Below, one piece after another: positions 2,659-60,316 of a DNA stretch of 64,000 nucleotides. The notes beneath the pieces were generated by a model. It was not told where the DNA came from. It was given only the letters and a program-made list of their open reading frames with translations, and made no database searches. The stretch is taken from assembly GCA_964393745.1 (NCBI GenBank), contig CAYMVA010000054.1, positions 16,406 through 80,405 on the forward strand, written 5' to 3'. This DNA comes from an uncultured Enterobacteriaceae bacterium. GTDB taxonomy: Bacteria; Pseudomonadota; Gammaproteobacteria; Burkholderiales; SG8-39. Made by a program: the position numbers and the translations under genes. Position 1 is the first letter of the stretch. Each line of letters begins with the position of its first letter.

Positions 2659-3411
2659 TTGGATCTCGCGATCGCAGGCCGGACCGGGCTGGTCACCGGC
2701 GCGAGCGCTGGCATCGGCCGCGCCATCGCGCGCGCGCTCGGCACCGAGGGAGTGCGGCTCGCGATCACCGCCCGCAGGCGCGAGCGGCTGGAAGAGCTCG
2801 CTGCCGAAATCGAGCGCGCCGGCGGCTCGCGCCCGGCGCTCATCGAGTACGATTTCATGCGCGAGGATGCGCCCGCGCGCATCGCTGATGGCGCGCTCGC
2901 CGCGCTCGGCTCGGTCGAGATCCTGGTGAATAACGCCGGCGGCTCGCGCTCCTTCAAGCTCGACGCCTCCGACGAGCAGTGGGACGAGGCGCTGACGCTC
3001 AACTTCACCCGCCAGCGCCAGCTCACCCACAAGCTGCTCGCGCAAATGATGGCACGCAAATGGGGCCGCATTGTCAGCATCACGGGCAAAAGCGAGCCCG
3101 AGGGCATCAACGGCGCCTTCGCAGCCAAGGCGGCGATGCATTCGTGGTCAAAAGGCCTGTCGCGTGAAGTCGGCAAGCACGGCATCACGGTCAACTGCAT
3201 CCCGCCGGGGCGCATCCTCTCGGAGCAGATCCTGCGCAACTACACTCCCGAGTATCGCGCCTGGCAGTCCGAGCACGAGATCCCGGTGGGCGAGTACGGC
3301 CAGCCCGAGGACATCGCGAACCTGGTGTGCTTCCTCGCCTCGCCGCTGGCGCGCTACATCACTGGGGCGGTGATTCCGGTGGATGGCGGGCTGCGCAAAT
3401 ACCAGTTCTGA
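2659..3411 (+). CDS. SDR-family oxidoreductase
   Basis: TGASAGIG, NNAGG and GITVNCIPPG motifs; TTG start; the canonical YxxxK Tyr is absent. Confidence 0.8.
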   Translation: MDLAIAGRTGLVTGASAGIGRAIARALGTEGVRLAITARRRERLEELAAEIERAGGSRPALIEYDFMREDAPARIADGALAALGSVEILVNNAGGSRSFKLDASDEQWDEALTLNFTRQRQLTHKLLAQMMARKWGRIVSITGKSEPEGINGAFAAKAAMHSWSKGLSREVGKHGITVNCIPPGRILSEQILRNYTPEYRAWQSEHEIPVGEYGQPEDIANLVCFLASPLARYITGAVIPVDGGLRKYQF

Positions 3412-3413
3412 CC

Positions 3414-4187
3414 GTGAGCGCGTTTCCGGTGCTGTTCCTATCCCATGGCTCGCCGATGCATGCGCTCGAGCCGGGCGCGGCGGGCGACGCGTGGCGCGAG
3501 CTGGCGCGCAAGCTGCCGCGGCCCAAAGCGATCGTCATGGCCTCGGCTCATTGGGAAACGGAGGTGCCGATGCTCACCGGCGCCGCGCAGCCGGAAACGA
3601 TCCACGATTTCTACGGCTTCCCGCGCCCGCTTTACCAGATCGAGTATCCAGCGCCGGGCGCGCCGGCGCTCGCCGAGAGAGCGCGTGCGCTGCTGGGTGA
3701 AGCCGGGTTCGATGCGCGGATCGACAGCGAGCGCGGACTCGACCATGGCGCCTGGTCGCCGCTGCTGCATATGTACCCGCAAGCCGACATCTCGGTAGTG
3801 CAGGTTTCGCTCCAGACCGAGCTCGGGCCGCGCCACCACTACGAAGTCGGGCGCGCGCTCGCGCCGCTCGCCGGCGAGGGCATCCTGATCTTCGGCTCGG
3901 GCCACATGACCCACAACTTGCGCGACCGCGTGCGCCCCGACGACAACGCCTACGCGCTCGAATTCCAGGCCTGGACTGATGCGCGCATTCGCGAGCGCGA
4001 CCACGAGGCGCTGATTGAATACCGCACGCGCGCGCCGCACGCCGTGCGCGCGCACCCGAGCGATGAACATTTCCTGCCGCTGTTCGTGGCGCTCGGCGCC
4101 GCGGGCCGGGACGCCCGCGCCGAGCGCGTGCACGACGGCATCGAGGGCGTGCTGGCGATGGACGCGTACCGCTTCGACGCCGCCTGA
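3414..4187 (+). CDS. Class III extradiol ring-cleavage dioxygenase (DODA/YgiD-like)
   Basis: FLSHGSPM, SAHW, HDFYGFP, GLDHGAW, GSGHMTHN and HPSDEHFLPL motifs; GTG start inferred. Confidence 0.88.
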   Translation: MSAFPVLFLSHGSPMHALEPGAAGDAWRELARKLPRPKAIVMASAHWETEVPMLTGAAQPETIHDFYGFPRPLYQIEYPAPGAPALAERARALLGEAGFDARIDSERGLDHGAWSPLLHMYPQADISVVQVSLQTELGPRHHYEVGRALAPLAGEGILIFGSGHMTHNLRDRVRPDDNAYALEFQAWTDARIRERDHEALIEYRTRAPHAVRAHPSDEHFLPLFVALGAAGRDARAERVHDGIEGVLAMDAYRFDAA

Positions 4188-4194
4188 GCGCTCG

Positions 4195-4217
4195 AGTGTA
4201 AAGTGTGACTTTACACT
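4195..4217. repeat. Palindromic repeat family A (AGTGTAAAGT-GTG-ACTTTACACT)
   Basis: Perfect 10-bp arms with a 3-nt loop; related copies at 24739, 48319, 54565 and 58310. Confidence 0.9.
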
Positions 4218-4353
4218 TGAGCCGATCTGCGCCCGGTGGCATGAAAGGACGAGCGCAAATCGACGCCTGTCGAACCGCCCGGATCCCTTGTCCTTGCAAT
4301 CCCAGCCCCGCGGAGTAGAGTCCTCGCCACGCGCACTTTTGAGGATGTACGCG

Positions 4354-6970: not shown

Positions 6971-8487
6971 TCAGGCGGCTGCTGCGCTGGCCGCCCGACG
7001 CGATCGCGCGGGCACCGCTTTCCATCTACGCCAAGCTGCTGGCCGCGTTCCTCGTGATCGCGGGGCTGCTGGTCATCATCGGCGCGGTGGGGATTGCCGA
7101 GCTCGACGCGGTGAACCGCCGCGCCGAGGACCTGGTGAAGATCCAGCGCAAGATCGCCGCCTACCGCCAGCTGCAGCACGGCACCACCGCACAGCTCTAC
7201 AGCGTCGCCTCCGCGCTGGTGGTCGCCGATGCGCGCGCGCTCGATGCGACGCTGCGCCAGCTAAACCAGTTCGGCTACGACCTCGACCGGCTGCAGTTCG
7301 TGGCGCAGGACGAGGTCGAGATCATGGCGCGCGTGCGCAAGGACTACGAGTCCTTCATCGCCGTCGTGACCGAAGTGGTCGAGCTGATCCGCGCCGGCAA
7401 GGTGGCCGAGGGGCGCGAGGCGCAGATCGGGCGCGCCGGGCCGCTCGCCGATCGCCTGGAGCGCCTCACCAACGAGCTGGTCAACAAGGCCGAGGCCGAC
7501 ATGCTGGCGCGCATCGACGACAGCCAGGACGATTACCTGCGGTCGCGGCGCGTCGTGATCGGCTTCGTCATCGGCGGCTTGCTGCTCGCGCTCGGCCTGG
7601 GCTATGCGATTTCCCTGTCGCTGATCGACCCGGTGAAGAAAATGGCCTTGCGCTTCGACGAGATCGGCGCCGGCAACTTTTCGCGGCGGGTGGAGGTTGC
7701 CAACCGCGACGAGCTGGGTGCGCTGGCGGCGAACCTCAACCGCATGAGCGACGAGCTGGGGCGCCTGTACCGGCAACTGGAGACCGCCAACCGGCACAAG
7801 TCCGAATTCCTCGCCAACATGTCGCACGAGCTGAGGACACCGCTTAACGCCGTGATCGGTTTTTCCGAGGTGCTGCACGAGCGCATGTTCGGCGAGCTGA
7901 ACGCGAAGCAGGCCGAGTACGTCGGCGACATCCACTCTTCCGGCAAGCACCTGCTCTCGCTCATCAACGACATCCTCGACCTCTCCAAGATCGAGGCCGG
8001 GCGGATGGAACTGGAGTTGTCGGAGTTCCGCCTGCAGGATGTGCTCGAGACCGCGATCACGCTGGTGCGCGAGCGCGCCACGCGCCACGGCATCGCGCTC
8101 AGCCTCGAGGTGGCGCCGGATGTCGGCACCCTCCGCGCCGACGAGCGCAAGCTGAAGCAGGTGATGCTGAACCTGCTTTCCAACGCGGTGAAGTTCACGC
8201 CCGAAGGGGGCAGCGTGCGGGTAGCCGCGAGATTGAGCGGCCAGGCGGCCGAAGTGTCGGTGACGGACACCGGGGTGGGCATCGCGCCGCAGGACCAGGC
8301 GCTCGTGTTCGAGGAGTTCCGGCAGGTCGGCAGCGACAGCGCGCGCAAGGCCGAGGGCACGGGCCTCGGTCTCGCGCTGACCAAGAAATTCGTCGAGCTG
8401 CACGGCGGCTCGATGCGCCTCGAGAGCACCCTCGGGCGCGGCTCGACCTTCACCTTCTCCGTGCCGCTCGTGGGGTCAGGTCTTTAG
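6967..8487 (+). CDS. Membrane sensor histidine kinase (periplasmic helical domain, HAMP, HisKA, HATPase)
   Basis: Two TM segments; HAMP (NRDELGAL); H-box FLANMSHELRTPLN; N-box NLLSNAVKFT; G-boxes DTGVGI and GTGLGL; GTGA overlap with the SCO gene. Confidence 0.9.
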   Translation: MIRRLLRWPPDAIARAPLSIYAKLLAAFLVIAGLLVIIGAVGIAELDAVNRRAEDLVKIQRKIAAYRQLQHGTTAQLYSVASALVVADARALDATLRQLNQFGYDLDRLQFVAQDEVEIMARVRKDYESFIAVVTEVVELIRAGKVAEGREAQIGRAGPLADRLERLTNELVNKAEADMLARIDDSQDDYLRSRRVVIGFVIGGLLLALGLGYAISLSLIDPVKKMALRFDEIGAGNFSRRVEVANRDELGALAANLNRMSDELGRLYRQLETANRHKSEFLANMSHELRTPLNAVIGFSEVLHERMFGELNAKQAEYVGDIHSSGKHLLSLINDILDLSKIEAGRMELELSEFRLQDVLETAITLVRERATRHGIALSLEVAPDVGTLRADERKLKQVMLNLLSNAVKFTPEGGSVRVAARLSGQAAEVSVTDTGVGIAPQDQALVFEEFRQVGSDSARKAEGTGLGLALTKKFVELHGGSMRLESTLGRGSTFTFSVPLVGSGL

Positions 8488-8524
8488 TTTGCAGGCATTG
8501 CCTGCAAACTAAAGACCTGACCCC
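8472..8524. repeat. 53-bp perfect palindrome, GGGGTCAG/CTGACCCC family (family B variant); probable bidirectional terminator
   Basis: 26-bp arms GGGGTCAGGTCTTTAGTTTGCAGGCA / TGCCTGCAAACTAAAGACCTGACCCC around a single T; lies between convergent genes and contains the kinase stop codon. Confidence 0.9.
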
Positions 8525-8532
8525 CATGCTTT

Positions 8533-9504
8533 TCAGTCGATCTTCGCCCCGGACACCCGCACCACCTCGGCCCAGCGCGCGTAGTCGTCCTCGAACAGCT
8601 TGCGGTAGTCGGCCGCCGAGCCGCCCATGGGCGCAGCGCCGAGCGTCTGCACGCGGTTCCTGAATTCCGGGTCGGCGAGCAGCTTGTTGGTCTCGGCATT
8701 GATGCGCTCGGCGATCGCCGCCGGAAATCCGTTCGGCGCCACCACCGCGAACCAGACCGAGGATTTGAGGTTCGCTATGCCCTGCTCCCCCGTGGTCGGC
8801 ACCTCGGGCAGCCCCGGCCAGCGCTGCTCCGCCAGCACCGCGATGGCGCGCACCCGCCCCGCCTTCACCTGTGCCTGGATGCCGGTCATCAACTGGAACA
8901 TGAGCTGGGTGCGGCCCGAGATCAGGTCCTTGGTGGCGTCCGCCGGTACGCTGTAGGGGATGTGCGTCATTTTGGTCGCGGTGAGCGTCTTGTAGAGCTC
9001 GCCCGCGAGGTGCATCGAGCTGCCATTCCCCGTGGAGCCGAAATTGAGCTTGTCGGGATTCGCCTTCACGTAGTCGGTGAATTCCGCCAGCGTCTTCACC
9101 GGCACATCGGGATGCACCACCAGGATGTTGGGCACGTCGCCCACCAGCACGATTCCCGTGAGCTCCTTCTTCGGGTCGTAGGGCATCGCCTTGTACACGT
9201 GCGGGTTGATCGCGATCATGCTCGAGGCGGCCATGCCGATGGTGTAGCCGTCGGGGTCGGCCTTGGCGATCGCCGCGAGGCCGGTGTTGCCCTGCGCGCC
9301 GGGGCGGTTCTCGACGATGAAGTTCTGGCCGAGCACCTTGCCGTAGGTGTCGGCAAGAAAGCGCGTCAGCGGATCGATGGTGCCTCCGGGGCCCGCCGGA
9401 ATCACGAAGCGGACCGGCTTCGCGGGCCAGGTCTGCGCCTGCGCGGCAACGGGTAGAACTGCGGCGGCGAGCGCGATGAGCAGCGATGCGAGTAAGCGTT
9501 TCAT
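8533..9504 (-). CDS. TctC/Bug tripartite tricarboxylate transporter substrate-binding protein
   Basis: Signal peptide; WPAKPVRFVIP, VENRPGAQGNTG, PDGYT and GSTGNGSSMHL motifs. Confidence 0.9.
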   Translation of the reverse strand: MKRLLASLLIALAAAVLPVAAQAQTWPAKPVRFVIPAGPGGTIDPLTRFLADTYGKVLGQNFIVENRPGAQGNTGLAAIAKADPDGYTIGMAASSMIAINPHVYKAMPYDPKKELTGIVLVGDVPNILVVHPDVPVKTLAEFTDYVKANPDKLNFGSTGNGSSMHLAGELYKTLTATKMTHIPYSVPADATKDLISGRTQLMFQLMTGIQAQVKAGRVRAIAVLAEQRWPGLPEVPTTGEQGIANLKSSVWFAVVAPNGFPAAIAERINAETNKLLADPEFRNRVQTLGAAPMGGSAADYRKLFEDDYARWAEVVRVSGAKID

Positions 9505-10502
9505 GAGGGTCTCCTTGCTTCTTCGATGACTGCGCGAATGTTATCGGACGGCGCGGCGATGGCGGCTACGCAGCCCGGCCCCACGATCAGGCGCCGGCCG
9601 CCGGTCTGCGCGATGGCGTCGCGCACCTGCGCGCGGATCGCTTCGCGCGGCCCGGAAACGAGCAGCGAGCGCTCCTCGACGCCGCCTACCAGCGCGCCGC
9701 GGAACTTGCCCGCGCCGGCCGCCAGCGCCGGCGGCGTCAGGCGGTCGTGCCAGTTGAGCATCTCGACCGGGTAAGCGGCCAGCCGCTCGAACATCACGTT
9801 CTCGCCGTGCAGGTGCAGCAGGTTGAAGCTCGTCCTGCCCTTTAACGCAGCGAACACTTCGAGGTCGTAGCGGGCGCCGAACTTTTCGTACTCCGCGGCG
9901 CTCAAGGCGTCGGTGGTGGCGAGCTGGGTGGCGAAGAAAAAACCGTGCGCGCCGGCCGCCACCGCAGCAAGCGCGAAATCCATGGTGGTATCGGTGATGG
10001 TGCGCAGGCCGGCCTCGAGCTCGCCGGGATGATCGCGCAGCTGGTCGAAGAAGTCGCCGCCCGCGAGCTTGCGCGCGGTGGTGAGCGGACTGAACACCGT
10101 CTGCAGGATCGGCACCTTGCCGCGCAGCTTCTTCGCCACGCGCGCGAGCGCCTCGTTCTGCGCCCCGAGCACGCCCTTGCGCACGTCGAGCCGCGGCAGC
10201 CGCGCCCAGTCGGCGGCGCGCTTCACGCCCGGATCGGTCACCACGCGGGCGCCGTTCGGCGCGCCCTCGTAGGCGGTTTTCGCGCCCCAGTCCTCGACGC
10301 CGTAGGTGCCAGAGGGCATGAACTTCACCAGGTCGAAATCCCAAGTGCGCTGCCACTCCAGGGTGCGGGCCGCGAGCTTGCCCGCATCCTGGTCGTCTCC
10401 AGGAAAATGCTTCCACAGCGCAACCGGCACGCGATCCGGTGCCGCGCCCGAAATAGCAGCCCCGATGCGCCCCCAATGGTCCATCGCACGAACGCGCTTC
10501 AT
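9501..10502 (-). CDS. Uroporphyrinogen decarboxylase-like (URO-D superfamily) protein
   Basis: DRVPVALWKHF, QTVFSPLT, LHLHG and LIVGPGC motifs; alternative start at 10484. Confidence 0.75.
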   Translation of the reverse strand: MKRVRAMDHWGRIGAAISGAAPDRVPVALWKHFPGDDQDAGKLAARTLEWQRTWDFDLVKFMPSGTYGVEDWGAKTAYEGAPNGARVVTDPGVKRAADWARLPRLDVRKGVLGAQNEALARVAKKLRGKVPILQTVFSPLTTARKLAGGDFFDQLRDHPGELEAGLRTITDTTMDFALAAVAAGAHGFFFATQLATTDALSAAEYEKFGARYDLEVFAALKGRTSFNLLHLHGENVMFERLAAYPVEMLNWHDRLTPPALAAGAGKFRGALVGGVEERSLLVSGPREAIRAQVRDAIAQTGGRRLIVGPGCVAAIAAPSDNIRAVIEEARRPS

Positions 10503-12233: not shown

Positions 12234-12300
12234 GGGGACAGACCCCGATTTTCGAGCATATCCCTCAGTAACTTAAGCAGAAAAATCGGGGTCTGTCCCC
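12234..12300. repeat. Inverted REP-like doublet GGGGACAGACCCC...GGGGTCTGTCCCC (family B), 67 bp
   Basis: Same ends and same 67-bp span as 28524..28590; AT-rich spacer. Confidence 0.88.
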
Positions 12301-12404
12301 GATTTTCCGGTTACATGCGGTTACAGACGTTGCATTTGCTACATCACACGGCGGGCCCGCTCGTGCGTCAATGTTCACGGGCACTCACAAGAAAGGAGCC
12401 TGCC

Positions 12405-24697: not shown

Positions 24698-24738
24698 GAC
24701 CGCCGCCGGCGGTGGGCGCCGGGGCCGCAGCGCCGCCG

Positions 24739-24761
24739 ACTGTAAAGTCACGCTTTACACT
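24739..24761. repeat. Family A palindrome (ACTGTAAAGT-CAC-GCTTTACACT)
   Basis: Near-perfect copy of the 4195 element in reverse orientation; intergenic. Confidence 0.88.
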
Positions 24762-24825
24762 TCGGCCGCTCGCGGCCGGGTACGGTCATTTGATTGTTCC
24801 CGAAACGCCGGCCAATCCCGGCGCA

Positions 24826-46627: not shown

Positions 46628-46875
46628 GACGCGCCGCCCGGTGCCGCCGCCTTCCCCAGTGCCGCGAAGAAAATCGGGGACAGACCTGAATTCTGGGTCT
46701 GTCCCCGATTTTCTTTACCCTCGCCTCATTGCCGCGGTCGTCGGCCGTCTGCGGAACTCGCCCCTCGCTGAAGCGGCTCGGGCTCGGACAATCCTCGCCG
46801 GATCTCCTTCGCCCGCGGCCCAGCTCCGCGCGGCACGATGGGGACCCCTTGCGGCGGCGCCGGGCGGCGCTCGTC
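46628..46875 (+). mobile_element. MITE-like element, left copy, with ~20-bp terminal inverted repeats and an internal family B palindrome
   Basis: Ends GACGCGCCGCCCGGTGCCGCCGC / GCGGCGGCGCCGGGCGGCGC(T)CGTC; internal palindrome at 46667..46715; no ORF of known function. Confidence 0.7.
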
Positions 46876-48318: not shown

Positions 48319-48350
48319 GCAAAAGTGTAAAGCGTGACTTTACACTTTGC
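48319..48350. repeat. Family A palindrome (AAAGTGTAAAGC-GTG-ACTTTACACTTT)
   Basis: Lies 6 bp outside the right MITE-like copy. Confidence 0.88.
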
Positions 48351-54033: not shown

Positions 54034-57000
54034 TCAGGGCGGCCACGTGCGCCAGCCCTTGAGCAGCGGGAAATACAGTGCCGGGCGCGCGCCGCCGAGC
54101 GCCGCCGCGTAGCGCTCCAGTTGCGCGCGGTAGCGCTCGTGCTCCTGGTCGAGAAAGCTCTCGACGTCTCCGCCCTTGTGAGCGCCGGTCTTGAAATCTA
54201 CTACCCAGCGCGCGCCGCTTTCGTCGGTCAGCACGCGATCGATGATCTGGCGCCCGGCTGCGGTGCGGATGCGGTATTCGCTCCGCGCCTCGGGATGCTG
54301 GCCGAGGAGCCAGCGGCCGCGCTCGTCGCTGATCGAGTTCTTGAGGGCGTTCGTGACGAGCTCGGCGGCGCGCTCGAGTTCACCTGCCGGGACGCCTCGC
54401 TGGCCCAGCTCGGCGCGGAACCGGGCCCGCAGCCGCTCGACGCGCTCCGCGTTCCAGCCGTCGAGAGCGTCCTCGGCGATCCGCTGCAGCCAGCGGTGTA
54501 CGACAGTACCGGCGTGCCGCGCAGTTTCGCCAGCCCAGGAGAACTCGATCGGGGCTGCAGCGGCCAAAGTGTAAAGTGGGACTTTACACTTTGCCGCCTC
54601 GGGGGCGGTTGGGAGCGTCCATGCGGCCGGGATGCGGTGGAGAACATCGCTTTCACCCCCCACCCTCACCCCTGGCCCCTCTCCCGCAGAGCGGGAGAGG
54701 CGAACCACAGCAGCAAACTGCCAGACCTTGGCGAGCAGCGAGCGCTTGCCGGGGGGCCTCGGTGAGCCGTCGTCGTCGAGCTTCACACAGCCTAGCAGGT
54801 GGATGCGCTGCTTGGCGCGCGTCGAGGCAACGTAGAGCAGACGCCCGGCTTCGGTGTCCTCGGCCTCGCGCTCGAGCGCTTTCAGGTAGTCGTAGGCGCG
54901 ATTCTCCTCGGCGCCGGTCTCGTGGATCGGCGCGAGCAGCAGCTGCCCATCCGCGCGCGCTTTCCACAGGAAGAGCGGCGGCTCGCCGTGCGCCGGCGTG
55001 CGGTCGAGCCCCGGGATGATGACGCTGTCGAACTCGAGCCCCTTCGCCTTGTGGATGGTCATGATTTGCAGGCGCTCGCCGGCCTCGAGATCGGGGAGTG
55101 CATAGAGCTGCTCGAGCGCTTCGGCGAGCACTTCGGGGTCCTCGATGTCGCCCGCTTCCTCGAGACGCTCGAGCTCGTCGAGGTAGATCTCGACATCCTC
55201 GAGTTCGGTGCGGTCGTCCACGCAGGCCGGGCCGCCGAGCGCGAGCCAGCAGCCCTCTACGCGGTCGCGCAGCGTGCCGCGCAGGCGGTGAATCATCGCC
55301 TGGCCGAGCGGCTGCCAAACGCGCATGAGGCGCTTGCGTCCGTCTTCGGATAGCGCGCACACGACGCGGTCGTCGTTCATAAGCTCCCAGATGGCGCGGG
55401 CCCCCGCCTGCGCGGGGGTGACGGATGGGGTCGCAGGGGTGACGAGTGCATGCAGGTCCGCGAGGGTCAGCCCGCACCACGGCGCGCGCAGGATCGCGAG
55501 CCAGGCGATGCGGTCGGCGGGGTGCATGAGCGCGCGCGTAAGCGCGTAGAGGTCCTGCACCGCCTGCTTCTCGCCGAGCCGCTCGATCTCGATGGCGCGG
55601 AAACGCAGGCCCGCCCCCTTGAGGGCCGGCACGATCTCGTCCAAGTGCCTGCGGTTGCGCACCAGGATGGCGCAGGTTCCTTCCGCCTTTGCCGCGAGCG
55701 CCGCAACCTGAGCGGCTTCCGACTCGCGCTCTTCAAACAGATGCCACTCGCACGCCTCGCCTTCGAGCGGCGCATGGTGCGGCGTCGAGCGCGCATACGG
55801 CACCGCGCCCGCGCTTTCGTCCTCCGCTTGCGGGAGCACGCTCGGGAAGGTCGCGTTCACCCACTCGACCACGCGCGCCTGCGAGCGGAAGTTGGTGGAG
55901 AGCGTGAGCGGCTCGAGCGTGACGGAACCCAGCCCTGCGCGCCGCGCGTGCAGGAACAGCGCCACCTCGGCCTCACGGAAGCGGTAGATGGACTGCATCG
56001 GGTCGCCCACCAGGAACAGCGTGCGATCGGAGCCCCGCTTTTCGTCGCCTCGTTCCCAGCCCGCGGTCAGGCGCTCGAGCAACTCCCACTGGCTGATCGA
56101 GGTGTCCTGGAACTCGTCCACCAGGATGTGGTGGATGCGGTGGTCGAGCGCGAGCAGCAGGTCGGTCGGCGAGTCGGGGGAGCCGAGCGCGCGCAGGGCA
56201 CCCTGCGCGATTTCCGTGAAGTCACACTTTGCCCTTTCGGCGAATACCACCTTGAGCTGCGCCGCGGCGAGCGGCAGCAGCGCGATGATCGCCTCCAACG
56301 CCTCCCATTGCGCCGCGCTGTAGCTGGCGGGCGGCATGGCGGGGAGCGCCGCGAGCGCGGCGCGCAGCGGCTCGTTGCCGGCGAGCGCCTGCGCCTGCTT
56401 GTTCTTCTTGCGCCACTCGCCCTTCTTGGTGAGAAGCTCCTGCGCGAGCGCTTCGCTTGCTTCCGGCAGCATTGTGCGCGCGCTGTCCAGCAGCCGCTGC
56501 CGCTCGCGCGCGAGGCCCTGCTCAATCTCGGCGCGCGAAGGCGGGTTGCCGGTCTTGCGCAGCCACTGGTCGCGCCGCGCGAGCATCGCGGCGAGAAGCT
56601 GCGTCGCCAGCGCAGCATTGTTGTCCAGGTGCGCGAGGAAGCGCTCAACCGGCGCGCCCAGGCCGGCGACGGTGCGTGCGGCAGCTTCGCGGTACATCTC
56701 GCCCGCGTCCTCCACAGTCTCGGGCTGGGCGCCGAACTTGGCGAGCACCGGCATCTGGCGCGTGAGCGAAGCGCAGAAAGCGTCGATCGTCATGATGCGC
56801 AGGCGGTGCGCGATGTCGCCAGCGTTGGGCAGCGCCTTGAGCACGCGCGCGCGCATCTCCGCGGCGGCTTTGCGCGTGAAGGTGATGGCGAGCACTTCCT
56901 CGGGCTTCGCGGCGCGCTCGAGCAGCGCGAGGTAGCGCTTGACCAGCAGGTCGGTCTTGCCCGAGCCCGCGGGCGCCTGCACGATGAACGAGCGCGCCGG

Positions 57001-57045
57001 GTCGAGGGCGCGCTCGCGCACCGCCTGGTCGGCTATCATGTCCAT
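54034..57045 (-). CDS. addA: AddA-like UvrD helicase with C-terminal PD-(D/E)XK nuclease
   Basis: QAPAGSGKT, ITFTRKAA.EM, LVDEFQDTS, VGDPMQSIYRFR, IMTIHKAKGLEFD, LYVASTRA and IDRV...VDFKT motifs. Confidence 0.85.
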   Translation of the reverse strand: MDMIADQAVRERALDPARSFIVQAPAGSGKTDLLVKRYLALLERAAKPEEVLAITFTRKAAAEMRARVLKALPNAGDIAHRLRIMTIDAFCASLTRQMPVLAKFGAQPETVEDAGEMYREAAARTVAGLGAPVERFLAHLDNNAALATQLLAAMLARRDQWLRKTGNPPSRAEIEQGLARERQRLLDSARTMLPEASEALAQELLTKKGEWRKKNKQAQALAGNEPLRAALAALPAMPPASYSAAQWEALEAIIALLPLAAAQLKVVFAERAKCDFTEIAQGALRALGSPDSPTDLLLALDHRIHHILVDEFQDTSISQWELLERLTAGWERGDEKRGSDRTLFLVGDPMQSIYRFREAEVALFLHARRAGLGSVTLEPLTLSTNFRSQARVVEWVNATFPSVLPQAEDESAGAVPYARSTPHHAPLEGEACEWHLFEERESEAAQVAALAAKAEGTCAILVRNRRHLDEIVPALKGAGLRFRAIEIERLGEKQAVQDLYALTRALMHPADRIAWLAILRAPWCGLTLADLHALVTPATPSVTPAQAGARAIWELMNDDRVVCALSEDGRKRLMRVWQPLGQAMIHRLRGTLRDRVEGCWLALGGPACVDDRTELEDVEIYLDELERLEEAGDIEDPEVLAEALEQLYALPDLEAGERLQIMTIHKAKGLEFDSVIIPGLDRTPAHGEPPLFLWKARADGQLLLAPIHETGAEENRAYDYLKALEREAEDTEAGRLLYVASTRAKQRIHLLGCVKLDDDGSPRPPGKRSLLAKVWQFAAVVRLSRSAGEGPGVRVGGESDVLHRIPAAWTLPTAPEAAKCKVPLYTLAAAAPIEFSWAGETARHAGTVVHRWLQRIAEDALDGWNAERVERLRARFRAELGQRGVPAGELERAAELVTNALKNSISDERGRWLLGQHPEARSEYRIRTAAGRQIIDRVLTDESGARWVVDFKTGAHKGGDVESFLDQEHERYRAQLERYAAALGGARPALYFPLLKGWRTWPP
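54565..54593. repeat. Family A palindrome in frame within addA (encodes KCKVPLYTL)
   Basis: CAAAGTGTAAAGT-GGG-ACTTTACACTTTG; perfect 13-bp arms; AT-rich island in a GC-rich CDS. Confidence 0.9.
54663..54700. repeat. Family D element (CCCTCACCCC...CCTCTCCCGC-AGA-GCGGGAGAGG) in frame within addA
   Basis: Perfect 10-bp stem at 54678..54700 preceded by a C-rich tract; encodes RLSRSAGEGPGVR(V). Confidence 0.8.
55398..55443. repeat. Family C element (GTCACCCCCGCGCAGGCGGGGGCCC on minus strand) plus a partial copy, in frame within addA
   Basis: Encodes VTPATPSVTPAQAG; same hairpin as 21402..21427. Confidence 0.8.
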
Positions 57046-57622: not shown

Positions 57623-60316
57623 TCATGGCTGGTCCTCGGTCTCGGCGTCCGTCTGCAGCGCGCCGATGCGCTCGTGCACCCGGCACAGCGGCTGCAGGTC
57701 GCACTGGCGGCAAGTCTTCAGGCCCTCCTTCGGGTCCACCTGCGCCGCGCCCGAGGCAAAACCTTGCGCGAGCGTATCGAGCTCTTTCTTCCAGCCGGCG
57801 ATCAAGTCGCCCCAGTTGTCGTAGCGCGTGAGCCCCGGCACTGCATCCGGCTCGCGCGAGTAGCCCATGAAGCGCATCTCGCCGCGCCGCACCTTGGCGT
57901 AGGCAACCGCCGCGACTTCCTCGGGCGCGTTCACCGCGTAGAGCGGCAGTTGCGGCTCCGTGGGCCGCTCGCCCATCCAGGCTCGCGGCGAGAGCTGCCT
58001 GCCGGTCTTGTAGTCGATGAGCAGGTGCGCAGCCGCATCCTTGCCATCGGAGAGGCGGTCCATGCGATCGATGCGGCCCGAGAACTCGAGCCCGCCGGCA
58101 GTGAGCGTGCGCTTGTCCTCGCGCGCCACCACTTCGAAGTCTTCGCGTCCCTTCTCCAACTCGAGCCAGTCGCGCGCCAAGTGCTCCAGTCGCGCGCGTT
58201 CCAGCTCGGCAAAGCGCCCTTCGAGCACGCCCGGCCGCCGCTCGCGCAGGCGCGCCACGGCAGCGGCGGCCGCGCGGCCTATCGCTGCCGCCAAGTCCGC
58301 AGGGGTCAGACTGTAAAGCGTCGCTTTACACTTGAGCTCGCCCCACACGCCTGCCATCAGGGCATGCAGCAGCGTGCCGCGCTCGAGGTCGTCGAGCCCC
58401 GCAGCGGGCGCCCCAAGCGCTTCCGCCCCGAGGCGGTGGCGCGCGAACGCCCGAAACGGGCACGCGGACTGGTCGGCGAGTACGCGCGTGCCGCCGCGCA
58501 CGCGCTTGTCGGCGAAGCGCGGCGCAATCCCATCGGCGGCCGATTCGAGGCACCGCGCTGCGAACAGCGCATCGCGGTAGCGCGCAAATTGCGGCAGCTC
58601 GGGCTTGCGCTCCGCAATTGTGGCGATGAGCGGGCTGGGCAGCAGGTTGCGGTCCTCCTCGCGCAGCGCATGCGACACGATCACCTCGTCGGCCGCGGCC
58701 AGCCAGCCCTCGGTGATTCGCCGGTCGAGCGCGATCGAGCCCTCGGCCGAGGCCTGCGGGATGTCCGCCTTCTTTTGCAGCGCCACGGCGATGAATGGAT
58801 TGGGCCGCGCGTGCAGCGGCCAGGCTTCGTCGGTCAATCCGCTCACCCACAGGCCGTCAAACTCCAAACCCGCGGATTCGAGGATACCGAGCACCTGCAC
58901 CGGCGCTTCCGGCGACTCGGGTTGGAACAGCATCTCCGCGCACAGGCGCTCGAGATGCGCGAGCGCATCGGCACGGTCCATCGCCGGCACGACGCGCTCG
59001 AGCTTCGCCAGCTCGCCCAGCATTTCATGGAGCTTGGCGCGCGCCTGGTACTCGTCCGAATCGAGTGCGCGCTCGCCAGGAAAGCCCGCCGCCTCGAGCA
59101 GCGCCGTAAAATGCGCCGCGCACTGGTGCGGCGAGCGCACGCGCGCGCGGTTGGCCTCGGCGCAGTTGTAAAGCGCCTCCAGCCTTTCGCGCAACAGCGC
59201 GCAAGGCTCGGCCGCAGCGACCAGCCTCGCAAGCGTCACACGCGCGGGCAGCGTCCTGCGCAGCTCCGCATCCAGGCGCGCGCGCGGCGCGAGCTCGCTC
59301 TCGGCGCCGCCGAGGAAGGGCGAGCGCAGCACCCGGCTGGCGAGCGCGAACTCGACCTCGCCCGCAGCGAGTTCCAGGATCGCGAGCGCCGCGTGCACGA
59401 CAGGCGCGTCCGAGAGCGGCGCGCCAAGCGAAACGTTGAAGGGCATCGGCTCCCTGCTCGCGCCGGGCAGGTTGCAGCCGGGCTGCATGAAGCGCGAGAA
59501 CACGCGCACCACTTCCCGGCGGCGCTTCGCCAGATCGGGAATGACGACTCCAAAGCGGAGGTCTGAACTCCCAACCTTACCCTGCTCGAGTCGCGCGCGC
59601 GCCCACGTTGCCGCTGCCTCCAATTCCTCGCGCGCTGAGGCGAACGCGGCGCGCATCGGGATCGCATTACGCTTGCGTGGACCGCACTCGCGCAGCTCGA
59701 TTCCCTGCGCGGCGCAGGCCTGCAGGAAGTCGCTCGCCTGCGGCGGCAGGATGTCGAAGCCGTAGGCGACGAGCAGCTGCGGCTTGCGCAGCGCGCGCTC
59801 GGGGAGCAGGCCCGCCACCACATCGGGCAGGCGCGCGCTATCGGTGTCAGCGCCGCAGCGCGCAGCGTAATCCTTTGCCCACGCGGCGAACGCGGCGCTG
59901 TCTTCGCTGCCCGGGAATTTCTCCAGCGCTCCGTCGATTCTCCAGGCGTGCGCGAGGCGCCATGCGTCCATCGCCTGCGCTGCGGCCTGCGCCGGAGAAA
60001 GCAGCGCGTCGCTCCACGCGCTCGCCGCGATCGCCGCCTCCCATAACTGCCGCTCCTGTACCGGCGTGAGGAGATGCGGCGCGGGTGTAGTCTCCGAGAA
60101 CAGCGCGTCTTCCCACAGGCGCTCCACGAATGCGGCGAGGGGCAGGATGTCGGCGTCCTCCCAGACCGCGAGGCCTCTTCCGATCTGGCTGGCATAGAAC
60201 TCGCGTCCCAGCTCCTGCGCCAGGCGCTGGTTGGGCGTGACCACGGTGGCGCGCGCGGCGTGCCCTCCGGCGAGCCGCGCGAAAAGTTCCTGCTTGGTGA
60301 GCGCAGCGGCCTGCAT
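57623..60316 (-). CDS. addB: AddB-like PD-(D/E)XK nuclease subunit with Fe-S staple cysteines
   Basis: VVTPNQRLA, QSACPFRAFA, GRIDRMD, IDYKTG, PQLPLYA and CRQCDLQPLCR motifs. Confidence 0.82.
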   Translation of the reverse strand: MQAAALTKQELFARLAGGHAARATVVTPNQRLAQELGREFYASQIGRGLAVWEDADILPLAAFVERLWEDALFSETTPAPHLLTPVQERQLWEAAIAASAWSDALLSPAQAAAQAMDAWRLAHAWRIDGALEKFPGSEDSAAFAAWAKDYAARCGADTDSARLPDVVAGLLPERALRKPQLLVAYGFDILPPQASDFLQACAAQGIELRECGPRKRNAIPMRAAFASAREELEAAATWARARLEQGKVGSSDLRFGVVIPDLAKRRREVVRVFSRFMQPGCNLPGASREPMPFNVSLGAPLSDAPVVHAALAILELAAGEVEFALASRVLRSPFLGGAESELAPRARLDAELRRTLPARVTLARLVAAAEPCALLRERLEALYNCAEANRARVRSPHQCAAHFTALLEAAGFPGERALDSDEYQARAKLHEMLGELAKLERVVPAMDRADALAHLERLCAEMLFQPESPEAPVQVLGILESAGLEFDGLWVSGLTDEAWPLHARPNPFIAVALQKKADIPQASAEGSIALDRRITEGWLAAADEVIVSHALREEDRNLLPSPLIATIAERKPELPQFARYRDALFAARCLESAADGIAPRFADKRVRGGTRVLADQSACPFRAFARHRLGAEALGAPAAGLDDLERGTLLHALMAGVWGELKCKATLYSLTPADLAAAIGRAAAAAVARLRERRPGVLEGRFAELERARLEHLARDWLELEKGREDFEVVAREDKRTLTAGGLEFSGRIDRMDRLSDGKDAAAHLLIDYKTGRQLSPRAWMGERPTEPQLPLYAVNAPEEVAAVAYAKVRRGEMRFMGYSREPDAVPGLTRYDNWGDLIAGWKKELDTLAQGFASGAAQVDPKEGLKTCRQCDLQPLCRVHERIGALQTDAETEDQP
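58302..58333. repeat. Family B half-site (GGGGTCAGAC) fused to a family A palindrome, in frame within addB (encodes KCKATLYSLTP)
   Basis: GGGGTCAG-ACTGTAAAGC-GTC-GCTTTACACTT. Confidence 0.85.

Follow-up and report, generated by a model that had tools for sequence, protein, structure and literature searches.

Palindromic repeats lying in frame inside repair genes were already described between 2000 and 2013. Di Nocera et al. (2013) found intragenic repetitive extragenic palindromic (REP) sequences, tagged by GTAG or CGTC, to be concentrated in genes for UvrABCD, UvrD/Rep, RecBCD, PolA, and DnaE2; some genes held double inserts, differing REPs occupied about the same recB site in two Xanthomonas species, and the authors proposed that the inserts occupy flexible linkers or loops (PMC3733652). 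Selfish Rickettsia palindromic elements (RPE) that sit in frame in functional genes and are translated were reported by Ogata et al. in 2000, as cited in PMC3733652 and PMC3184786. The betaproteobacterial repeat BRE is usually intergenic, with some copies wholly within coding sequences (Hot et al. 2011, PMC3110155), and DNA uptake sequences were found superimposed on coding DNA at poorly conserved positions, with length unchanged (Findlay and Redfield 2009, PMC2817400). Here we describe two hairpin-forming palindromes, one of a family we call A and one of a family we call D, inside an AddA-like helicase-nuclease gene. The gene lies in a 64-kb stretch of contig CAYMVA010000054.1, which is betaproteobacterial with 67.5% G+C; we refer to the whole stretch as the window and use its numbering throughout.

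We think it probable that the two hairpins belong to unrelated families of short, REP-like palindromic repeats and that they are now coding sequence of the tether joining the helicase and nuclease domains. Relative to the earlier reports, the host protein and the repeat families are new. A sequence-only reading of the same DNA had proposed hairpins as a source of new protein sequence in a core repair enzyme; our results bear out the invasion and the tolerance this entails, but the concept itself had been described before (PMC3733652).

Two palindromes at the tether of an AddA-like protein

The features at the center of this study are as follows.

54034–57045, minus strand: AddA-like helicase-nuclease gene (addA), a stop-free open reading frame (ORF) of 1003 amino acids (aa)
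54532–54693, minus strand: predicted disordered tether, aa 785–838; AlphaFold2 predicted local distance difference test (pLDDT) score below 50, no secondary structure
54565–54593, minus strand: family A palindrome in addA, with perfect 13-nt arms and a 3-nt loop; encodes (A)KCKVPLYTL(A), aa 818–826
54652–54702, minus strand: family D element, on the coding strand a CCTCTCCCGC-TCT-GCGGGAGAGG hairpin and then a G-run tail GGCCAGGGGTGAGGGTGGGGGG; encodes RLSRSAGEGPGVRVGG, aa 781–796
57623–60316, minus strand: AddB-like partner gene (addB), 897 aa; TIGR03623 "probable DNA repair protein" (874 bits), PDDEXK_1

Pfam domains in the addA ORF are UvrD-helicase, UvrD_C, and then a C-terminal PDDEXK_1, with motif VI (LYVASTRA) at aa 737–744. 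An AlphaFold2 model with a mean pLDDT of 78 found B. subtilis AddA as its best Foldseek match (4CEJ_A, E = 2e-32), followed by RecB. The protein missed the NCBIfam AddA equivalog cut-offs (223 bits vs 861 for addA_alphas, 150 bits vs 708 for addA_Gpos), and the RecB equivalog cut-off is likewise far above its score. It joins a superfamily 1 UvrD-type helicase to a PD-(D/E)XK nuclease and has an AddB-type partner alongside, as addB adjoins addA on the upstream side and on the same strand. Because domains and fold fit AddA and the equivalog scores are far too low, we named the protein AddA-like.

In the model, the last helicase helix spans aa 770–777 and the first nuclease helix starts at aa 840. 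The 54 residues of the tether are modeled with low confidence, and both hairpin-encoded peptides are predicted to fall within it or at its edge. RecB and AddA likewise carry the nuclease on a long flexible linker at the same place, and among the best structural matches are RecBCD entries whose titles name docked and undocked RecB nuclease. We know of no repeat-derived sequence in the tether of solved RecB or AddA proteins. Alignments of 120 and 81 orthologues revealed a linker of hypervariable sequence. Its length hardly changes: among 120 homologous proteins, the query has 126 aa and the others have 119–141 aa over the equal span.

The arms of the family A palindrome lie at 54565–54577 and 54581–54593 (CAAAGTGTAAAGT/ACTTTACACTTTG) and contain an AT-rich core, AGTGTAAAG/CTTTACACT; the hairpin has a folding energy of -22.7 kcal/mol (z = -6.3). 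The D hairpin has perfect 10-nt arms at 54678–54687 and 54691–54700 with a 3-nt loop. Taken alone it is unremarkable at this G+C on the sense strand (z = -0.46) and reaches z = -3.0 on the antisense strand. Its tail extends on the coding strand to about 54652, and the coding strand over 54652–54692 reads GGGAGAGGGGCCAGGGGTGAGGGTGGGGGG, with five G-runs set apart by 1–3-nt spacers; as read from these letters, the tail would fit a G-quadruplex-type motif (G3+N1–7, four times) in the mRNA sense.

We compared the window with three orthologous loci, designated L001, L002, and L032. The ratio of nonsynonymous to synonymous substitution rates (dN/dS) was 0.15–0.27 in the helicase part, 0.18–0.29 in the nuclease part 3' of both hairpins, and about 0.55 in the linker. 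The helicase and nuclease domains are both under purifying selection. Since the frame is open and selection acts on both sides of the linker, the hairpin DNA would be read through and translated as linker residues; predicted tryptic peptides across the two hairpins include SAGEGPGVR, VGGESDVLHR, and CKVPLYTLAAAAPIEFSWAGETAR. The sequence-only reading had claimed two hairpins in frame after LYVASTRA and before the nuclease domain, in an interdomain linker, within a gene neither frameshifted nor broken by stops. The inverted repeats, the intact ORF, the structure prediction, and the selection on the nuclease domain all agree with it.

Two further observations concern the tether. A perfect 11-nt inverted repeat (CCGCTGCAGCC/GGCTGCAGCGG), whose arms at 54481–54491 and 54553–54563 are separated by 61 nt, abuts the A palindrome; both arms contain the 8-mer palindrome GCTGCAGC, and one codes part of the conserved HRWLQRIA motif. 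This repeat is probably coincidental. At another orthologous locus (L129), the addA linker has about 50 extra aa and contains a hairpin, GGGAGGGCGTAAAGCCCTCCC (peptide ...AWEGVKPSP...), of yet another family.

Family A in coding and extragenic DNA

Family A is a real repeat, as the sequence-only reading had supposed, and it is lineage-restricted. Besides the addA palindrome, the window contains four copies.

58310–58333, minus strand: family A copy in addB, AAGTGTAAAG-CGACG-CTTTACAGT with one arm mismatch; in frame, encoding KCKATLYS
4190–4222, no strand assigned: family A copy directly after the stop codon that ends ORF 3327–4187
24738–24762, no strand assigned: apparently intergenic family A copy whose arms are degenerate
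48322–48348, no strand assigned: apparently intergenic family A copy whose arms measure 11 nt

The total of five, which includes the degenerate addB copy, amounts to about 1 per 13 kb. The pattern AAGTGTAAAGT-N3-ACTTTACACTT matched the window four times, with 0.00 matches expected in shuffles. All three copies outside addA and addB (~4195, 24738, 48322) adjoin ORF ends; at the first of these, the NMT1 domain of the downstream ORF begins far downstream of the copy.

We also scanned species-representative genomes for family A. GC-rich loci totaling ~330–350 kb contained 49–51 copies, nearly all in one related metagenome-assembled genome (MAG). This MAG, CAZVHU01 (~70% G+C), had at least 50 copies in the scan, and L032 is its addA orthologue. 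Of 52 copies in the related MAG, about 44 do not fall deep within an open frame, and about 8 lie in frame in other genes, HrpA, MnmC-like, and acyl-CoA synthetase genes included, where they code SVKSRFTL or CKVTLYT. The copies converge on the consensus GGCCGA-AGTGTAAAG-N5-CTTTACACT-TCGGCC, and half-sites are paired in 98 of 105 cases in the related loci; the window contains eight half-sites. As a short, stable stem-loop palindrome with many dispersed, mostly extragenic copies, family A resembles REP-type repeats, and its consensus carries neither the GTAG nor the CGTC terminal tag of the Di Nocera superfamilies. It had no match in a plasmid collection. Among the flanks of the 52 copies, covariation pairing was no better than in shuffles, the core arms being fixed by the search pattern.

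One in-frame copy in the related MAG (L035:5449–5469, SVKSRFTL) stands in an HrpA-like helicase gene just before an ILPLYARLS motif, in the helicase core region, so that a second helicase gene carries family A. The family-A-rich MAG (L004–L072, CAZVHU01...) is labeled "uncultured Enterobacteriaceae bacterium", yet it has ~70% G+C and an addA 75% identical to the betaproteobacterial-type gene; its taxonomic label looks wrong.

The addA copy is an old feature. It occurs at identical codons in L001, L002, L003, and L032 (85%, 75%, 74%, and 74.6% protein identity, respectively), and comparison of these genes with that of the window indicates that it is common to a five-member clade; L075 has an apparent decayed copy at the same position. 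Within the clade, pairwise nucleotide difference is 7% over the nine palindrome codons, 27–32% over the flanking linker, and 13–19% over the catalytic domains, making the palindrome codons the most conserved stretch of the linker.

At neither of the two coding sites in the window does family A alter protein length. The stretch aa 806–833 is 28 aa long in all five carriers, and its median in non-carriers is also 28 (range 27–31, n = 39); carriers have AAKCKVTLYT where non-carriers have VKWDAPPEGRDEE, and the ancestral AAG TGG lines up with the AAGTG start of the palindrome. The addB copy is common to L002 and L032. It overlies an ancestral LKTKAALDAL with no gap across more than 40 orthologues, keeping K, K, A, and L, and about half of its 24 positions already equaled the ancestral codons. 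Because the addB palindrome overlies this peptide with length unchanged, alignment points to replacement or conversion, not simple insertion, as the way in which family A enters coding DNA.

Family D, its relatives, and turnover at the linker

The D pattern has 0.01 expected matches in shuffles, and D is non-random because it matches outside sequences that belong to a repeat family, tail included. In the plasmid collection, the D architecture occurred in 78 records, including at least 40 places in the 2.5-Mb replicon of Cupriavidus sp. EM10. We inspected 40 kb of that replicon, judging coding status by our own check of ORFs and of G+C at third codon positions (GC3), as the record has only two annotated features; all three D copies there fall outside high-GC3 open frames, and two form an inverted pair ~100 bp apart (L157:20005 and 20104). 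The window element reads CCCTCACCCC-TGGC-CCCTCTCCCGC-AGA-GCGGGAGAGG on the plus strand of the window, and the Cupriavidus copies read CCCTCACCCC-AACC-CCTCTCCCGC-GCT-GCGGGAGAGG. Common to both are a hairpin, a 4–5-nt spacer, and a third arm, CCCTCACCCC/GGGGTGAGGG. By this match in architecture, D belongs to a repeat family widespread among Burkholderiales and other bacteria. Measured against REP and REPIN (REP doublet forming hairpins) repeats, D shares the architecture, and its multiple copies are found only in other taxa, not in the 64 kb of the host genome or in ~350 kb of the related MAG; in this particular genome it is rare or solitary.

DNA from 89 orthologous addA loci contained related elements, whose variants we named D, D', and E. 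In each, a G-run tail comes after a CT-rich/GA-rich hairpin. In query numbering they occupy three approximate sites, S1 (aa 536–549), S2 (aa 699–700), and S3, the linker (aa 781–790), each of which is a loop or low-confidence stretch of the AlphaFold2 model. S2 is empty in the window and L001; L002 has a clean 75-nt insert there, L003 is empty, and L032 has a shorter version of the L002 insert. Element-bearing orthologues are longer by ~16–17 aa at S1 and S2 and by ~5 aa at S3, and these comparisons are evidence that the D/E-type elements are true insertions. Copies within one gene resemble one another more closely than they resemble those that other genomes carry at the same site, which fits genome-specific repeat families. 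On a neighbor-joining tree, ~14 gains of D/E-type elements are needed, all in the half of the family at ≥55% identity. Separately, the G-rich tail of the S2 element at L002:5520–5640 is expanded into tandem GGCAGGGTGGGGGTA units encoding GEGQGGGRQGGGSQGGG, which suggests slippage after insertion.

At S3, exactly where the window has D, the closest relatives, L001 and L002, both have a different hairpin, E (CCCCTCCTCG-C-CGAGGAGGGG), together with a second GC hairpin; E is decayed at this site in L032 and L003. Since E is present in L001 and L002 and D in the window, E is ancestral, and D took its place once the window's lineage had split from that of L001. The S3 segment containing D measures 32 aa, compared with a median of 35 aa in element-free orthologues. 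We considered a net insertion in the window's linker and rejected it, both hairpin-bearing segments being equal to or shorter than those of element-free orthologues. As we read these alignments, the linker records turnover, with arrival, decay, and replacement of elements under an apparent length constraint.

These comparisons bear on three claims of the sequence-only reading. Its proposal of successive invasions by different families is supported by the E hairpin of L001 and L002. Its expectation that orthologues free of the hairpins would differ from addA of the window held for the residues but not for length, so that no net insertion took place. Its view that the linker tolerates insertions fits the higher dN/dS of the linker (~0.55 vs 0.15–0.29 in the domains); the A copy, the most conserved part of that linker across five lineages, is not simply tolerated.

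Within addA, the G-rich tail of D/E-type elements is on the coding strand in every copy, yet the reverse orientation, as read from the sequence, is free of stop codons in all frames. In 79 loci picked only by addA homology, the 249 kb of addA sequence contained 12 CT/GA hairpins and the 711 kb of flanking DNA contained 8 (~4-fold, binomial p = 0.0013); for copies of characteristic sequence, the counts were 10 in addA and 3 in flanks (~10-fold). Because the events are not all independent, this enrichment is only suggestive. It agrees with the remark in PMC3733652 that replication and repair genes are often the sole REP-tagged genes of a genome. AddA orthologues were also sought on chromids for a comparison of density over whole replicons, and those found were all relatives below 40% identity, too distant to be useful. 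Rfam gave no match at E up to 1 in 54300–54900, and neither hairpin coincides with a terminator-like or promoter-like site; in particular, neither combines a GC-rich stem with a T-run as an intrinsic terminator does.

Other palindrome families occur nearby. A perfect 53-bp palindrome at 8472–8524 (GGGGTCAGGTCTTTAGTTTGCAGGCA/TGCCTGCAAACTAAAGACCTGACCCC), of a different repeat family, lies just before the minus-strand ORF 8533–9540. Another, AT-flanked family (AAAATCGGGG-N-CCCCGATTTT) has two copies, at 12282–12306 and 46667–46715, the longer of which has 20-nt arms. In other lineages, the palindrome family CTTGAGGTCACAATTTGTGACCTCAAG and its variants recur in addA-flanking DNA (L077:4090, L093:14228, L127:13223, L136:196–740, L087:5744).

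Origin of the hairpins and comparison with known repeats

If both hairpins derive from repeat families, family A would have overwritten ~9 ancestral codons with no change in length and have been kept almost unaltered since. D, a CT/GA hairpin with a G-run tail, would be a later arrival in the window's lineage that displaced the different element E. The tether and two other surface loops would serve as recurrent landing sites across the protein family, and elements would decay in place, so that recent and eroded hairpins make up the linker side by side while its length stays about the same. We propose that repeat units of the D/E type are inserted in a transposition-like manner and that templated replacement brings family A copies into coding DNA. 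Which copies survive may then depend on selection for frame, for freedom from stops, and for tether length, and the encoded peptides could serve only as a flexible spacer.

Several points weigh against this account. The available 64 kb yielded no REP-associated tyrosine transposase (RAYT), in the course of work that included no search aimed at transposases. Strict and relaxed patterns recovered no second D copy in the window, and ~350 kb of the related MAG contained none. That D forms a repeat family within this one genome is thus unproven, and we dropped that part of the proposal; the sequence-only reading, which had called D a family, was right as to its relatives in Cupriavidus and not as to further copies in the window. 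That the hairpins are translated is a deduction from the selection acting on the frame, not an observation. Simple insertion would not predict that family A is exactly length-neutral in both addA and addB, and the strong conservation of A, together with the uniform coding-strand orientation of D/E-type elements, suggests constraint beyond neutral tolerance.

Some of these points would be explained if family A were a chromosomal motif, such as a protein-binding or uptake-signal-like palindrome, that is not mobile but arises in place through point mutation or short-patch gene conversion. Such an origin would account for the length neutrality (28 vs 28 aa in addA, gap-free in addB), for the addB positions that matched in advance and the K..K..L retained there, and for the alignment of ancestral AAG TGG with the palindrome's AAGTG start; uptake sequences do accumulate at poorly conserved positions of coding regions (PMC2817400). 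We nonetheless regard it as unlikely, as the motif is sparse in the window, single half-sites almost never occur, the arms are far more information-rich than typical binding sites require, and most copies lie just outside genes. Identity with an uptake sequence was rejected outright on density (8 half-sites per 64 kb) and on pairing (98/105).

Constraint could alternatively mean that the hairpins are selected cis-acting structures, whether mRNA or DNA hairpins or a G-quadruplex-type switch, that pause translation between the domains, tune AddA levels, or mark the gene. The conservation of the A palindrome within a fast-evolving linker, the one-sided orientation of G-rich tails where the reverse would be equally stop-free, the placement of elements at domain boundaries and loops, the enrichment of CT/GA hairpins in addA, and the fit of the D tail to a quadruplex motif could all be taken this way. 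We judge it improbable all the same: close relatives vary at each site in the presence, absence, and type of element, copies decay in place (for example in L003, L032, and L073), the same families are mostly extragenic, the hairpins are without a terminator-like feature or Rfam match, and the enrichment counts do not represent independent events. That the hairpins are an artefact, through chance palindromes, misassembly, or a pseudogene, is a reading already contradicted by the data and one to which we give almost no credence. By our own calculation, 64 kb of DNA with this G+C should contain about one perfect 10-bp hairpin, and the D hairpin is no more stable than shuffles on the sense strand. 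However, the A palindrome recurs at the same codons in four independent assemblies, the ORF is intact with a nuclease domain under purifying selection 3' of the hairpins, D has matches outside with tail included, and shuffles give expectations of 0.00 (A) and 0.01 (D).

Derivation from repeat families, which we favor, would make this locus a clean, datable case of repeat DNA turned into protein sequence in a core recombination enzyme, with one element present clade-wide and another swapped in since the nearest relative diverged. The helicase-nuclease tether would be built partly from successive hairpin elements at about constant length, and the AddA-like and AddB-like genes would join the replication and repair genes in which intragenic palindromic repeats are, for reasons yet unexplained, concentrated. 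A bolder extension, which we find doubtful, is that AddA-like genes are preferred hosts that accept D/E-type elements in one orientation only (~14 or more apparently independent gains in three loops), and that family A spreads in coding DNA, including addA and addB, by length-preserving templated replacement. If true, the elements would be targeted to recombination-repair genes or selected there for a function at the nucleic-acid level, extending the unexplained bias of Di Nocera et al. (2013).

The described systems share part of this pattern each. Like RAYT-mobilized REPs and REPINs, the elements here are short, GC-rich, dispersed hairpins, and the inverted D pair in Cupriavidus is REPIN-like; family A, unlike these, has an AT-rich core and occurs as singletons. 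The resemblance to Rickettsia RPE, as in-frame translated palindromes, is one of behavior only: RPE are ~105–146 bp, Rickettsia-restricted, and unrelated in sequence, whereas the elements here span 23–50 nt (29 and ~50 nt for the two in addA, outside the RPE range) and belong to a GC-rich betaproteobacterial lineage. BRE, which we liken by description and not by sequence, is ~90 bp and often tandem, as a variable number tandem repeat (VNTR), and this locus has no tandem array. Uptake sequences are similarly length-neutral motifs laid over coding DNA, as family A is in addA and addB, but they are 9–12 nt, mostly single, and occur ~1 per kb, compared with a 23-nt palindrome with paired halves at ~1 per 13 kb. 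Closest are the intragenic REPs of Di Nocera et al., which are also short palindromes, normally extragenic, lying in frame inside repair genes. Our elements differ from them in lacking the GTAG/CGTC tag, in a host that is AddA-like with a TIGR03623 partner, in the length neutrality of the A copies, and in the single orientation of D/E-type elements at three recurrent sites in many lineages. To that earlier picture our analysis adds a length-preserving replacement by family A in addA and addB alike, a dated swap of D for E, three recurrent sites, and a strict orientation of D/E-type elements.

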